Source: Promethearchaeota archaeon
GTDB lineage: Archaea > Asgardarchaeota > Lokiarchaeia > Sigyniarchaeales > SOKP01
NCBI GenBank assembly: GCA_048941015.1
Contig: JBHLNZ010000009.1
Location: 1-64,000 of the forward strand
Reading direction: 5' to 3'
Length of the DNA: 64,000 nucleotides
The position numbers and the translations under genes were made by a program. Below the pieces are notes generated by a model that saw only the letters and a program-made list of their open reading frames with translations, had not been told where the DNA came from and searched no databases. Position 1 is the stretch's first letter. Every line of letters begins with the position of its first letter. This document shows positions 26,440-31,941 of this stretch, in pieces.

Positions 26440-27093
26440 ATGGAAGAACAAAAGATAATTGAAACAGAAAATCTTAGAAAATATATTAATAAATTAGATA
26501 TTGATACTTTTGGTATTGCTGACATGCTTTTTTTAAAGGAAATGGAGACTGGTCTTCCTACAGATGTAAAGAAATTCGTAGATGTGTTTCCTTATGCGAT
26601 TGTATTGGGAGCTCAATATGGAAAGTTAGGGAAAAAAGCATCTGGAGGCGAAACTGCACTATTTTTAGAAAAAGCTGCCTTTTCAATAATGGAATATTTA
26701 GAAGATAAAGGTTATAAACAACTTATTATTCATACTGAAGACGAATTTGATCCTATTAATCGCTTAGGATTTATGTCGCTTAAACTCTTAGCAAAAACGG
26801 CTGGACTTGGATGGCAAGGAAGGTCATTATTAATTGTATCTCCAGAATATGGTCCTTTACATCGTCTAATTGCTATTTTGACCGATATCCCGCTTCAAGC
26901 AAACAAAGTAATTAAAAATGAATGTGGTGACTGCCGAAAATGTATAGAAGCTTGTCCTCAGAATGCTCTTACTTTTAATAATTTTAAAGATCATCCTCAA
27001 CATAGGGAGGATGTATTGAATATTAAGTCTTGTTTGGGAGATAATGGATGTATGATATGTATTTTGTCCTGTCCTTGGTTAAAAAAATCTTAA
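26440..27093 (+). CDS. QueG/reductive-dehalogenase-superfamily Fe-S protein
   Basis: AGLGWQGRS.L...PEYGP.HRL...LTD, CxxCxxCxxxCP and a second Cys cluster. Confidence 0.82.
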   Translation: MEEQKIIETENLRKYINKLDIDTFGIADMLFLKEMETGLPTDVKKFVDVFPYAIVLGAQYGKLGKKASGGETALFLEKAAFSIMEYLEDKGYKQLIIHTEDEFDPINRLGFMSLKLLAKTAGLGWQGRSLLIVSPEYGPLHRLIAILTDIPLQANKVIKNECGDCRKCIEACPQNALTFNNFKDHPQHREDVLNIKSCLGDNGCMICILSCPWLKKS

Positions 27094-27200
27094 TATTTTA
27101 AAAAATAATTTTATTCAAACTATACATGAGATTATATTATCTAATGTATAATGAATTACCTGATTAATGATGATTTATGACAAGAATTAAATAGAAATCA

Positions 27201-27632
27201 TTAATGGTGAGAATTTTTAAATGCTTTTGCGCAATGTATACAGCAAAAATTCAATTCTTTACCCTTAATTGTTTCAACATGAAAATCTTCATAAAGTTTA
27301 ACACCACAGCTAGCACATACTTTCAATTTTGATTCTATAGCTGCTTCAATTAAGTTACTAAAGCGCTGAAAAATGTTATCAATAAACTCTTTTCCCGATG
27401 TGGTTAATTGAAATCCTTTTGATTTTTTTGATTTTGGATTAGGAGTGGGAATTATATATCCTTCTGATTGGAGCTTATTTAAAAAATCATATATATAAGT
27501 TGGGCTTGCCGTCTTCCCTAAATCTGATTCAAGCCGCTTTATAATATAATATCCCGTGACTGACTTTTTAGATTTTAATAATGTTAAAGTATAAAACTTT
27601 GTTAGGTTTTGGATTTTAATACTATCACTCAA
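27201..27632 (-). CDS. PadR-like wHTH regulator fused to a TRASH/YHS metal-binding domain
   Basis: TGY.IIK.L....G...SP.YIY.FL..L...GYI...F.LT.SG, then CASCG...NFCCIHC. Confidence 0.85.
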   Translation of the reverse strand: MSDSIKIQNLTKFYTLTLLKSKKSVTGYYIIKRLESDLGKTASPTYIYDFLNKLQSEGYIIPTPNPKSKKSKGFQLTTSGKEFIDNIFQRFSNLIEAAIESKLKVCASCGVKLYEDFHVETIKGKELNFCCIHCAKAFKNSHH

Positions 27633-27739
27633 TTAATGAACTCCTCCATTTCATAATCTTAGGATATTAATGGAAAATCCCTATATTAATAATAGCTTTT
27701 ATAATTTATAAATATATATTTTATAATAACAATTCTTAA

Positions 27740-27761
27740 ATATATACTTTAACATATATAT
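27740..27761. promoter_or_regulatory. Candidate operator ATATATAC-N6-ATATATAT
   Basis: One mismatch to the arms of the palindrome at 29030-29051; overlaps a TTAAATATA TATA-like box. Confidence 0.45.
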
Positions 27762-27796
27762 CCCAAAATAATAATAAAATAAAAATTGATGAAAAA

Positions 27797-28084
27797 ATGA
27801 TATTTGATACTTTTTATGATGGAGATTTTCATGTGATGGATTGGTGGTTTAATTTATTTGGACCATATTCATGGCTTATTATGGCATTAGGAATGGGGTT
27901 TTATATCGCATTAAGCATCATAATTGCCTATTATGTTCATAAAGACGCTATAAGAAGAGGAATTGTTAATTCTGAAGTATGGTTAATAATTGCTTTGATT
28001 TTTAATGTACTAGGTTTATTACTTTATCTTCTTGTAAGAGGAAATTACAGTAAACGGATTTCAAGTGAAAAAAGTAAGCAATAA
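27797..28084 (+). CDS. Small membrane protein (PLDc_N-like)
   Basis: YVHKDA.RRG....VW.II...NVLGLLLYLL.R; N-terminal HVMDW. Confidence 0.78.
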   Translation: MIFDTFYDGDFHVMDWWFNLFGPYSWLIMALGMGFYIALSIIIAYYVHKDAIRRGIVNSEVWLIIALIFNVLGLLLYLLVRGNYSKRISSEKSKQ

Positions 28085-28104
28085 TAAAAATAGGGGATAA
28101 GTTT

Positions 28105-28452
28105 ATGATATTAGATTATAGTCATGATTATATGAATCAAATGATGGATTGGGGTTCAAATGGATGGATCATCTTAGTTTTAGGCGGTGCCATTTTTCTT
28201 TTATTTATTATAATTCTTTTATATTTTTTGTCTCGAGGACGTAATCATCAAGAGAATTTCCCGAATAATAAGCAAGATATAATTTATAATAAGAATGAAC
28301 TGTTGAACATTCCAAATAGTTATAGCTCTAGACCAGTCAAGGATAATGTAAAAAGTGATTATGATGCTGTTAATTATTGCCCTGCTTGTGGAGAAAAAAT
28401 AAATGGAACAGAAGTAAAATTTTGCCCTTTTTGCGGAGCTCGAATTTTATGA
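28105..28452 (+). CDS. Single-TM protein with C-terminal zinc ribbon
   Basis: HDYMNQMMDW N-terminus, TM, CPACG...FCPFCG. Confidence 0.8.
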   Translation: MILDYSHDYMNQMMDWGSNGWIILVLGGAIFLLFIIILLYFLSRGRNHQENFPNNKQDIIYNKNELLNIPNSYSSRPVKDNVKSDYDAVNYCPACGEKINGTEVKFCPFCGARIL

Positions 28453-28858
28453 TTAATATCATCAATTAAATTATTCTTTTTTTATATGTACTTACATTCT
28501 GAAGCTAAGACTAGCTAAATTTTAGATTATAAAAAGCCAAAATCTAATAGAGTTTAAAATTAATATTTTAAAATAAAAATCTCAGAATCCTTAATTTTTT
28601 TCCTTCTTGGGATAAAAATAGACATAAAATCCAAAAATAATGCTATTAAATGTTAAAAAAACCCATAATATTAATATGAAAAAGAATTCAAAAGTACCCA
28701 GTTCAAGACTAAAATAACAACCTATTAAGAACTAATCCCAATTTTTAATTATCCTCCGTTATTAAAAAAAAAATATTAGGGTAGAGCACATCACACATTG
28801 AGTTTCAAATGTATATTCTCTGCATTCTACTATTTCTTAGATTAATATTCGTTATATT

Positions 28859-28981
28859 CTACATTTTATCATGCTCGTGCATGTGTTCCATTTCTTTTTT
28901 GTGTTCATGTTCATGCATATGTTTCATTTCTTTTTTGTGTTCATGCTCATGCTCACTTTCTTCATTCTCATGACAATCCAT
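28859..28981 (-). CDS. His/Met-rich micropeptide (40 aa), putative Cu-binding
   Basis: Hand-translated MDCHENEESEHEHEHKKEMKHMHEHEHKKEMEHMHEHDKM*. 11 His, 6 Met, 36-bp internal repeat, divergent from copB. Confidence 0.75.
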   Translation of the reverse strand: MDCHENEESEHEHEHKKEMKHMHEHEHKKEMEHMHEHDKM

Positions 28982-29029
28982 AAGTTTTCCCTTTTTTTAA
29001 ATTAAATTCTATTTAATATATATTTCATG

Positions 29030-29051
29030 ATATATACTAATACGTATATAT
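29030..29051. promoter_or_regulatory. Palindrome ATATATAC-N6-GTATATAT
   Basis: Perfect 8-bp arms upstream of the His/Met peptide, overlapping its TATA-like box. Confidence 0.5.
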
Positions 29052-29249
29052 TTAAATGTATTTCTTTAGTTTAATAACTTCTTTAAATTAGTTTCATAAC
29101 AGTAAATTCTTTTAAAAAACCTGCTCAAAAACTTAGAAAAGTAATCGAGGAGGTTGGATTGGATTAAAGGGACTATTGAATTTTAAATATTATGAATTAT
29201 AAATAAAAAATTTATAATCCTTCTTAAAAAATACTAGATATAAGGGAAT

Positions 29250-31340
29250 TTGATGAAAAGGATGAAAATTAATAAAGTTAAAGATAAAAAACAAGATAAA
29301 ACCAAATTATTATCAGATAAAAAAAGTATAAGAAACGACTCTCATAATACCCATGATATGAGCGAAATGGGGCATAAAGGAAAAATAGACCAATCTACTC
29401 ACCATAGAATGATGATAAAAGATTTTCGGCGAAGATTTTATGTCTCGTTAATCGTTACCATACCGATTTTGATATTATCTCCTACTATTCAAGGATGGTT
29501 AGGATTGAATATCGTTATTCCCGGTGTGGATTTTATTCTACTAGCTATGGCGTCATTCATTTTCTTTTATGGTGGATGGCCCTTTCTTAAGGGAATTGTA
29601 AATGAGTTAAAGAAAAAGTCACCGGGAATGATGACCTTGATTGCGGTAGCTATTGCAGTAGCATATTTTTATAGTACAGCTACTATATTTGGATTGGAAG
29701 GAGATCCATTTTTTTGGGAATTAGCGACTTTAATTGATATTATGCTTCTTGGGCATTGGATTGAAATGAAATCCGTTTTAGGAGCTTCTAGAGCTTTAGA
29801 AAAATTGGTAGAATTAATGCCATCAACAGCTCATTTAATAAAAGATGAAGAGATCGTTGACGTAGGACTTAGTGAACTGAAAAAAGGAGACATAGTTTTA
29901 ATAAAACCTGGTGAGAAAATACCCTCCGATGGATCGATTATAAAAGGCTCGAGTTTTATAGATGAATCCATGTTAACGGGAGAATCTGTACCAGTTGAAA
30001 AAGAAAATGGAGACTTAGTTATTGGAGGATCGGTGAATGGGGATGGTTCCCTTGAAATTCAAGTAGAAAGTACAGGAGAAGATTCCTATTTGTCAAAAGT
30101 TATCAATTTAGTAAGGGATGCCCAAGCATCCAAATCAAAAACTCAACGACTTGCTGATAAAGCGGCATTTTGGCTTACGATTATAGCTCTTACGGTAGGA
30201 TTCACCACACTTTTTACTTGGTTATCGTTAGGAAAATCTTTTAATTTTTCAATTGAAAGAATGGCAACAGTAATGGTTATTACCTGTCCACATGCTCTTG
30301 GACTAGCAATTCCTCTAGTTGTTGCAATTTCAACATCAATCTCAGCAAAAAGTGGATTATTGATAAGGAATCGAACTGCATTTGAAGCTTCTAGAAAAAT
30401 TACTACTATAGTATTTGATAAAACTGGAACATTAACAAAAGGCACTTTTGGTGTAAATCTTGTTCAATCATTTGACAGTGATTATGATGAAGAGAAAATT
30501 ATTGAAATTGCAGCTTCTTTGGAGCAAAATTCTGAGCATCCAATTGCGAAGGGAATAGTTGAAAAAGCACATGTAATGAATCTTACCTTACAACAACCTT
30601 CAGATTTTAAAGCTATCAAGGGTAAAGGCGTTGAAGGAAAGATTAATGGAAAACTAGTTAGTGTAATTAGTCCAAACTATTTAAAAGAACTAGATATAAT
30701 CATCCCAGAAAACTTGAAGAGAGGCCCTATAGATACTGTGGTATTTATTCTTCTGAGTGAAAATAAATTAATTGGTGCTATTAGTCTTTCTGATCAAATC
30801 CGTGAAGATTCTTTTGAGGCTATTAAGAATTTAAAATCTATGGGTATTAAATGTTGGATGTTAACTGGTGATAATAGGAAGACTGCTAAAGCAGTTGCAG
30901 AGGAATTAAATCTTGATGGATATTATGCTGAAGTTCTTCCTCATGAAAAGTTAGAAAAAGTTAAAGAGTTGCAATCTAAAGGTGAATTTGTTGCTATGAC
31001 TGGTGATGGAATTAATGATGCTCCTGCTTTAGCTCAAGCTGATGTAGGAATTGCAATTGGATCTGGTACTGATGTTGCTGCTGAAACGGCAGACATCATT
31101 CTAGTAAATAGTAATCCAGAAGATGTAAATTCTCTCATTGGATTTGGAAAAGCAACTTATAGTAAAATGATTCAAAACCTAATTTGGGCAACAGGCTATA
31201 ACATATTTGCAATTCCACTTGCCGCAGGAGTTCTAATTAGTCTCGGAATATTAATTAACCCTGCAATCGGGGCAATTCTTATGTCTTTAAGTACAATTAT
31301 CGTTGCAATAAATGCCCGATTTCTAAAGTTAAAGAAATAA
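29250..31340 (+). CDS. copB: P1B-3 copper-exporting ATPase
   Basis: CPH transmembrane motif, DKTGT, TGES, SEHP, GDGIND, YN and MSLS; His/Met-rich N-terminus. Confidence 0.92.
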
Positions 31341-31463
31341 TCAATTTTTTTCCTTAATAATTCTTTAAATTTTACTATTAGAAAGCCTTAAATAGTCGAA
31401 ATTGATATTAATCCCCACAGCAATATCTAATTAAAATATAGCAAGTTAATTTTAATAAGAGAG

Positions 31464-31781
31464 GTGAAATCACAAATGGTATATTTCTTAACTGTAATCT
31501 ACTTTCCCGGAGAGAAGGCAGAACAAATAGGTAAAGTTTTACCAAAATTACCAAAACTTCCCGATTTTGTTAAACCCCCCCAAATTTTTGCTACAGTTTC
31601 TAGTGATAATGGACAAATTAAAGCATATGGAATTTATGAAGTTGATGATAATAAATCTCATGAAGGATACGTTGCAATTGCAAAACGTTTAACGGGCTAT
31701 TTTGAAATAGAAGGAGTACAATATAAAATAGAACCTTTAATGACGCTACGGGAAGCATTAGCTATCATAGGACTCGGATAA
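31464..31781 (+). CDS. Hypothetical protein (probable ATG at MVYF)
   Basis: GAGGTGA RBS; protein-like composition. Confidence 0.7.
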   Translation: MKSQMVYFLTVIYFPGEKAEQIGKVLPKLPKLPDFVKPPQIFATVSSDNGQIKAYGIYEVDDNKSHEGYVAIAKRLTGYFEIEGVQYKIEPLMTLREALAIIGLG

Positions 31782-31941
31782 AATTTCCATAAATTTTTCA
31801 TATAAACCATTTAATTAACTTTTTTTTTATAAATTTATTTAATGGTAAGCTCGGTATTATCGGCCTTTACCCATAATCCTGAAATTGATAAATCTTCATT
31901 ATTTTAAAATATAAAAAAATAAAATTTTTACATTTATAACT

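Follow-up and report, generated by a model that had tools for sequence, protein, structure and literature searches.

The locus described here occupies positions 27,201 to 31,340 of a window of 64,000 nucleotides, namely positions 1 to 64,000 of contig JBHLNZ010000009.1 (assembly GCA_048941015.1) of an Asgard archaeon of the Lokiarchaeia, whose genome (G000 in our numbering) measures 3.59 Mb, with 29% GC, and is 95% complete. It encodes a small regulator with a cysteine-rich tail, two small membrane proteins (TM95 and TM115), a 40-residue His/Met-rich open reading frame (ORF), referred to as pep40, and a CopB-type copper ATPase, and it contains a palindromic box that is the predicted operator of the regulator. 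The features are as follows, all of them found at these coordinates by an ORF listing and a reading of 27000-29400.

27201..27632, minus strand: regulator gene, PadR-TRASH, 143 aa
27698..27722, minus strand: putative regulator-side TATA block AATTTATAAATATATATTTT with an isolated half-site ATATATAT at 27713-27720
27735..27761, plus strand: predicted promoter/operator O1, from motif searches, weight matrix and promoter geometry
27797..28084, plus strand: TM95, small membrane protein with an N-terminal HxMDWW, weakly PLDc_N-like
28105..28452, plus strand: TM115, single-helix membrane protein with MMDW near the N-terminus and a zinc ribbon, CxxC...CxxC, at the C-terminus
28859..28981, minus strand: pep40, 40-aa His/Met/Glu/Lys ORF, monocistronic, with a 36-bp repeat
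29016..29056, minus strand: predicted promoter/operator O2, from motif searches, weight matrix, Tandem Repeats Finder and geometry; the array is also present in genomes G018 and G099
29197..29217, plus strand: TATA-type promoter block of copB, TTATAAATAAAAAATTTATAA, from six aligned copB upstream regions; without a PadR operator
29250..31340, plus strand: CopB-type ATPase gene, 696 aa, P1B-3, with a His/Met-bearing N-terminus

The same arrangement, with an identical peptide region, was found on contigs from other runs, including one of a second study, which supports the assembly. A scan with Rfam over 26500-31800 gave nothing credible.

The PadR-type regulator and its cysteine tail

The regulator gene starts at a TTG codon preceded, 8 nt ahead, by a GGAGGAG ribosome-binding site. 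A first reading made from the letters alone (hereafter, the sequence-only reading) had described its product as a winged helix-turn-helix protein of PadR type bearing a TRASH-type cysteine domain, and this description holds. The Pfam PadR model (PF03551) matches the protein with 33.4 bits, above its cut-off of 27. An AlphaFold2 model built on the alignment of homologues (pLDDT 88) shows the LmrR/PadR arrangement, a winged helix with a long helix C-terminal to it, and Foldseek places LmrR and PadR proteins at the top of its matches, with target TM-scores of 0.7-0.8 over ~100 residues (the first 100). Similarly, a family profile run against the PDB ranked Bacillus subtilis PadR first (E 7.9e-8) and returned Ta0938 for the tail. 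A MarR-type protein was the first PDB match of the single sequence; membership in that family was rejected, as both the profile and the fold searches favour PadR. No Lrp/AsnC model matched the regulator in the Pfam, NCBIfam, fold or profile searches.

In the tail, C106-AS-C109 is followed further on by F-C130-C131-I-H133-C134, and the last two residues are HH. Across 22 homologues, 39-91% identical, the pattern C106-x2-C109-x20-C130-C131-x-H133-C134 is invariant, and the spacing C106-x2-C109-x20-C130-x3-C134 agrees with the TRASH motif C-x2-C-x19-22-C-x3-C. The terminal HH, which the sequence-only reading had listed beside the winged helix and the cysteine tail as a third mark of the protein, is present here and is not kept among the 22 homologues. 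Precomputed matches to the TRASH_HVO_1752_C and Ta0938 models are present on many homologues.

The family appears to be an Asgard one. Homologues in a large protein set come, apart from two evident mislabels, under Asgard source names, and their annotations read “PadR family” or “TA0938 family”; none of the searches made found the regulator outside Asgard genomes. Profile matches at E 1e-25 or better, nearly all of them full-length, occur in 126 of 400 genomes sampled from the phylum, roughly one in three, and in 35 of 85 genera; the carriers include several genomes assembled as single contigs, such as G032 and G267. The regulator is present in 14 of the 42 genomes of the window's own genus. 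Regulators 83-92% identical to the one described here appeared in the protein search, and gene context was examined for those belonging to GTDB representatives.

The palindromic box and its neighbourhood in Asgard genomes

The sequence-only reading had proposed a shared operator overlapping the TATA-like box of both the TM95 operon and the peptide gene, and both sites are as it described them. At O1, a TATA-like CTTAAATA (27735-27742) is fused to ATATATAC-TTTAAC-ATATATAT (27740-27761), the end of which lies 35 nt from the ATG of TM95. At O2, a TATA box TTTAAATA (29049-29056, minus strand) is fused to three half-sites at 14-bp spacing (29044-29051, 29030-29037 and 29016-29023), a period also detected by Tandem Repeats Finder, and 34 nt separate the end of O2 from the ATG of pep40. 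A further block at 27698..27722, conserved in the window, G018 and G030, is probably the TATA box of the regulator's own promoter with one half-site.

A genome-wide scan set the palindrome far above the background of AT-rich DNA. Exact matches to ATATATAY-N6-RTATATAT occur only at 27740 and 29030, and allowing up to one mismatch yields four sites, three of them in the locus (27740, 29030 and 29016); the fourth near-perfect box, C133:6524, was dismissed as lying inside a coding region on another contig. Within the window, six strand-matches with up to two mismatches stand against 0.73 expected, a number reached by none of 100 shuffles. When the spacer was varied from 0 to 20 bp, lengths other than 6 gave two exact matches in the whole genome: one with a spacer of 15 on another contig and one with a spacer of 20, which is the outer pair of the locus's own three-half-site array. 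A weight matrix built solely from sites of other genomes ranks 27740 (25.4 bits), 29030 (24.7 bits) and 29016 (16.1 bits) ahead of everything else in the genome, the next site having 14.5 bits.

The promoter geometry was compared across loci: one side of the box runs directly into YTTAAATA, the consensus of the archaeal TATA element. Measured back from the start codon, this element begins at 60-75 nt in most loci, and the box ends, on its far side, at 32-48 nt. The box thus spans about -30 to -1 of the promoter, followed by a leader of 35-45 nt with a ribosome-binding site. Reaching from the TATA element to the expected start site, it has a geometry that favours repression by occlusion. The half-sites are themselves TATA-like and fused to a TATA box, as would suit a strong promoter element shared by genes that use the basal machinery and left unbound by the regulator; this explanation is very improbable, given that the palindrome has no more than three sites in this AT-rich genome of 3.59 Mb, is essentially confined to genomes that hold the regulator gene, and is replaced by a different palindrome where the orthologues are only 42-46% identical.

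The pairing of box and regulator can be followed through related genomes. Across 41 genomes, the box and the regulator gene co-occur; two genomes have the box without a regulator match, and in these the box precedes TM95 less than 1 kb from a contig end. Exact boxes with a G/C-bearing half-site are found in the 41 genomes almost only at these loci. The exception is G012, which has two exact extra boxes (C64:25-46 and C72:8264-8285; L047 and L046) with no copper gene nearby; both are letter-identical to O1 of the window, and one precedes a gene for a 266-aa secreted or membrane protein. In nearly all related loci, the box stands in the intergenic region adjacent to the regulator and directly before TM95, and it recurs at the orthologous promoters of copA, of the TM95/TM115 operon and sometimes of copB. 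The distant orthologues at 42-46% identity have their other palindromes without this box.

Synteny in other Asgard genomes, which the sequence-only reading had named as a check, links the regulator to copA or copB and to TM95/TM115 genes. Of 12 related loci, 11 have the regulator orthologue beside a P1B ATPase gene, the two being adjacent and divergent, and TM95/TM115 homologues are nearby in most of the 12; in the window, TM95 is the gene divergent from the regulator, and copB is found 1.6 kb away. The ATPases beside the orthologues are of CopA type, with CPC, an HMA domain and MxxSS. Almost all of the related genomes examined have the orthologue beside copA or copB, which makes copper the likely signal, as the sequence-only reading had suggested. 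That the cysteine domain might be a structural zinc ribbon, or a sensor of Zn, Cd, thiol or redox stress in a module not specific to copper, seems to us quite improbable. Such a role would agree with TRASH models that stay below their cut-offs on the regulator, with a nearest solved relative, Ta0938, that has no known function, with the zinc ribbon on TM115 and with an IscU-like gene as a frequent neighbour; set against it are the copper signatures of the linked pumps (CPC, HMA and MxxSS, or CPH and MSxST), an invariant cysteine spacing that is exactly that of TRASH, and the Met/His motifs that mark the target proteins.

Copper pumps, small membrane proteins and the His/Met ORF

In the Arguello classification, an ATPase is assigned to P1B-3 by CPH in core helix 4, YN....P and MSxST in the two last core helices, and the lack of an HMA domain. 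The ATPase of the window, which scores 629 bits with the copper P1B model TIGR01511, carries CPH, GYN....P and MSLST and has no CxxC HMA motif, which is the P1B-3/CopB signature; its start is likely the ATG at 29253. The sequence-only reading had counted copB among the genes of the regulon, which agrees with the arrangement in two other genera and is not supported in the window's lineage. In G058, copB follows TM95-TM115 in one operator-controlled unit, and in G057 copB and TM95 diverge from a single box between them. In the window's lineage, an alignment of six copB upstream regions revealed a conserved TATA block of its own, whatever lies upstream, and no box; the matrix likewise found no match above 12 bits between 29052 and 29249. 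A palindrome at 29197-29217 was considered as a second operator and rejected, as only its TATA part is conserved among the six regions.

CopB orthologues are present in 15 of 135 genomes of the family, and their similarities cut across genera. CopB of another genus is 83-86% identical to that of the window, compared with 84% for the nearest congener, and the regulator of G099 is 89% identical, compared with 82% in the nearest congener. In G079, G099, G107 and G109 (L052-L055), the copB cassette and regulator are as close to those of the window as the nearest congener's, or closer. This distribution suggests that the copB cassette is mobile and has been transferred laterally within the family. 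Just before copB, TTGGATTGGATTAA (29154-29167) corresponds to the final codons (..IGLD stop) of a gene for a 319-aa dehydrogenase-like protein, which precedes copB in G018 and G109; judged by its sequence, it is a relic of that gene, deleted in the window genome.

The assembly divides copA of the window genome (CPC, HMA) between two contig ends that overlap in sequence, C55:8877-9793 and C62:1-2136. Ahead of it come a 753-aa gene and an IscU-like gene, an order also seen in relatives, but this locus lacks the regulator and TM95/TM115, and the box survives there only as 3-mismatch remnants; the regulator-TM95/TM115 segment has evidently moved, as far as the comparison of loci can tell, from copA to beside copB. 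Constant companions of the regulon are a gene of ~790 aa and one for an IscU/NifU-like scaffold (L017-L022, L048, L049; G000:C55:5953-8658), an association that would fit repair of copper-damaged Fe-S clusters. Many related CopA proteins are fused to C-terminal YHS/TRASH-like and HCGKPMH-type domains. For instance, the CopA C-termini of L015, L019, L021 and L022 comprise a YHS/TRASH-like CGM...YYFC..SC and a CxxCG..HCGKPMH..CWMG..CG..PEHHGKPM domain, and the HCGKPMH-type domain also occurs free, as a protein of 55-62 aa next to copA (L018:3412-3830; L054:3830-3997). No scanned model named either of these fused Cys/His domains, which could be chaperone modules. A free-standing HMA or TRASH protein was not found in the 95% complete window genome. 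The view of the sequence-only reading, that pep40 acts in place of CopZ/CopT, would be consistent with this, though the domains fused to CopA could fill the chaperone part.

TM95 and TM115 are the two small membrane proteins for which the sequence-only reading had noted His/Met N-termini, and both do keep H-M-M-D-W just ahead of the first membrane helix. A neighbouring TM95 paralogue, upstream of the box, lacks this motif. Homologues of TM95 are Asgard hypothetical proteins, a few of them labelled PLDc_N, and in most related genomes the operator is directly upstream of TM95. The C-terminal zinc ribbon of TM115 is invariant, and the distribution of charges suggests that its N-terminus faces out. 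The two proteins would probably present an exposed, outward-facing His-Met-Met-Asp-Trp copper site.

The ORF pep40 has 11 His, 6 Met and 1 Cys among its 40 residues by direct count and is divergent from the CPH-type ATPase, just as first described. Of the genome's 9,963 ORFs of 25-80 aa that begin with ATG, none is richer in His. The product has no match in Pfam or NCBIfam and is neither an HMA nor a TRASH protein. Searches for relatives gave no candidate in a set of 5.8 billion proteins and no usable match in the ESM Atlas; a six-frame protein search of the 135 genomes was insensitive, missing even the copy in G018. A DNA search found three copies of the ORF, of 36-44 aa. Each has its ATG 5-7 nt behind GAGGA or GGGAA and the same stop position, and each is monocistronic behind the same TATA/three-half-site array. 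All indels between them are in frame, the number of 12-aa repeats varying by whole repeats, and the copies have in common two to three M-E-H-M-H-E units and an N-terminus of acidic character, but not the Cys. A T10 run lies ~95 nt downstream of pep40.

It could be objected that pep40 is no gene at all, being an open frame that arose from a 36-bp DNA repeat, or a non-coding RNA, with the operator driving something else. The ORF is of low complexity and restricted to three genomes, it was left uncalled by the gene callers that feed the 5.8-billion protein set, substitutions between its copies mostly change the amino acid, and no RNA run containing the pep40 locus was found. What makes this explanation rather unlikely is that the ATG with its ribosome-binding site, the stop position, the in-frame indels and the M-E-H-M-H-E copies are all kept in three genomes, that the ORF is the most His-rich small one of the genome, and that it has its own promoter/operator and a T-run downstream. 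On these grounds, pep40 is probably, with some room for doubt, a real, translated peptide. It lies beside CopB and combines His, Met and acidic residues with short M-x-H-M-H-type repeats; its likeness to known His/Met-rich proteins is one of composition, without sequence homology, and it differs from them as a free peptide with its own predicted operator. More tentatively, at slightly below an even chance, it would be a copper-binding partner or buffer for CopB.

A proposed copper switch and its counterparts

The locus probably forms a copper-stress module under the control of the PadR-TRASH regulator, which would act as a Cu(I)-released repressor of TM95-TM115 and pep40. In general terms, the proposed switch can be divided into three steps. 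(i) Occlusion: a dimer of the metal-free regulator would sit on the box and block TBP, TFB and RNA polymerase, and half-site arrays at 14-bp spacing would let neighbouring dimers bind. (ii) Release: Cu(I), and probably also Ag(I), would bind the TRASH cysteines and release the regulator from DNA, a mode of action known from PadR-family ligands and from the repressor form of CopR in Thermococcus onnurineus. (iii) Response: release would switch on TM95-TM115 and pep40 in this genome, and pep40, a His/Met peptide of the cytoplasm, would buffer copper or pass it on to the His-rich N-terminus of CopB, itself read from its own promoter.

Several observations weigh against this reading. The regulator tail scores 20.6 bits with TRASH_HVO_1752_C and 22.1 bits with the Ta0938 model, both below the cut-off of 27 (E ~1e-4 each), and Ta0938, its nearest solved structure, is a protein without known function. 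With copA lacking a box and copB having its own promoter, both pumps may escape the switch, so that its only clear targets here are TM95-TM115 and pep40. The full stretch of operator plus ORF was found by the DNA search in the window genome, G018 and G099 only, which is 3 of the 135 family genomes, and the antisense frame of the low-complexity pep40 is also open, for compositional reasons. No RNA run containing the locus was found. Lastly, several relatives have the box ~140 nt before the annotated start of copA and ~76 nt before the regulator gene, an upstream position that would also fit activation or autoregulation.

This last point bears on whether the regulator is a copper-dependent activator or a dual regulator, like CopR of Pyrococcus furiosus or Saccharolobus, that stays bound and stimulates TBP/TFB with copper. 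CopR-type TRASH regulators do activate in two of the three archaea studied, and the box of copA in several relatives lies well upstream of the probable core promoter. To our knowledge, all PadR-family members studied so far are ligand-released repressors, and at TM95, TM115 and pep40 the whole interval between the TATA box and the expected start site falls within the box, the classic position of an archaeal repressor. We consider an activator improbable, and release of a repressor by Cu(I) the better account of these promoters.

The characterized archaeal copper regulators, termed CopR, combine an Lrp/AsnC protein with a TRASH domain, are octameric and bind TTNNCAWWWTGNNAA (PMC7830388). CopR acts as an activator or a repressor depending on the species, T. 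onnurineus having the repressor form (PMC7830388). With CopR of P. furiosus (PF0739), T. onnurineus (TON_0836) and Saccharolobus, the regulator described here shares an N-terminal winged helix, a C-terminal TRASH-type Cys domain and a small size, as well as copper ATPase neighbours (usually divergent from copA) and a small regulon, here a predicted one, that includes unannotated small genes. Unlike CopR, it has a PadR (LmrR-like) fold without the Lrp oligomerization domain, and its predicted operator is the 22-bp ATATATAY-N6-RTATATAT, overlapping the region from TATA to start, rather than TTNNCAWWWTGNNAA. It is most likely, as far as fold and motif comparisons go, a variant, built on PadR, of the Lrp-TRASH CopR known from other archaea, and we infer that it works like CopR without belonging to the CopR family. 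Literature searches on PadR with TRASH and copper, on PadR with copper and Asgard, on Ta0938 and on HVO_1752 found nothing relevant.

The PadR repressors of B. subtilis (PadR) and L. lactis (LmrR) share with the regulator its fold, its Pfam family, a palindromic operator and, likely, release by a ligand. Their ligands are phenolic acids or drugs held at the dimer interface, whereas here a separate four-Cys metal domain is appended. The part proposed for pep40 is that of the small soluble copper carrier in cop clusters, CopZ or CopT(CopM), yet pep40 has neither HMA nor TRASH and only one, non-conserved Cys. A precedent for it is found in P. furiosus, where an unannotated small gene of the cop region is the most copper-induced transcript (PMC7830388). 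More speculatively, and doubtful on balance, the Asgard PadR-TRASH copper sensor may have been assembled independently of the Lrp-TRASH CopR, with a regulon that includes two new classes of copper-handling proteins: the HMMDW membrane proteins, with an outward-facing site, and, in a few lineages, a free micropeptide that acts as the soluble partner of CopB, like a detached metal-binding domain of that pump.

Asgard archaea are the closest prokaryotic relatives of eukaryotes, and gene regulation in them is almost without experimental knowledge. From sequence, the locus yields a regulator with its predicted binding site, a probable ligand and a few target genes, and it points to new copper-handling parts that are named in no database, namely the His/Met micropeptide and the HMMDW membrane proteins, the latter being the most constant targets of the switch.

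A gene for a 217-aa protein with a C-terminal 2x[4Fe-4S] ferredoxin domain is situated immediately downstream of the regulator gene (26440-27093); in relatives, no link between it and the copper genes was seen.

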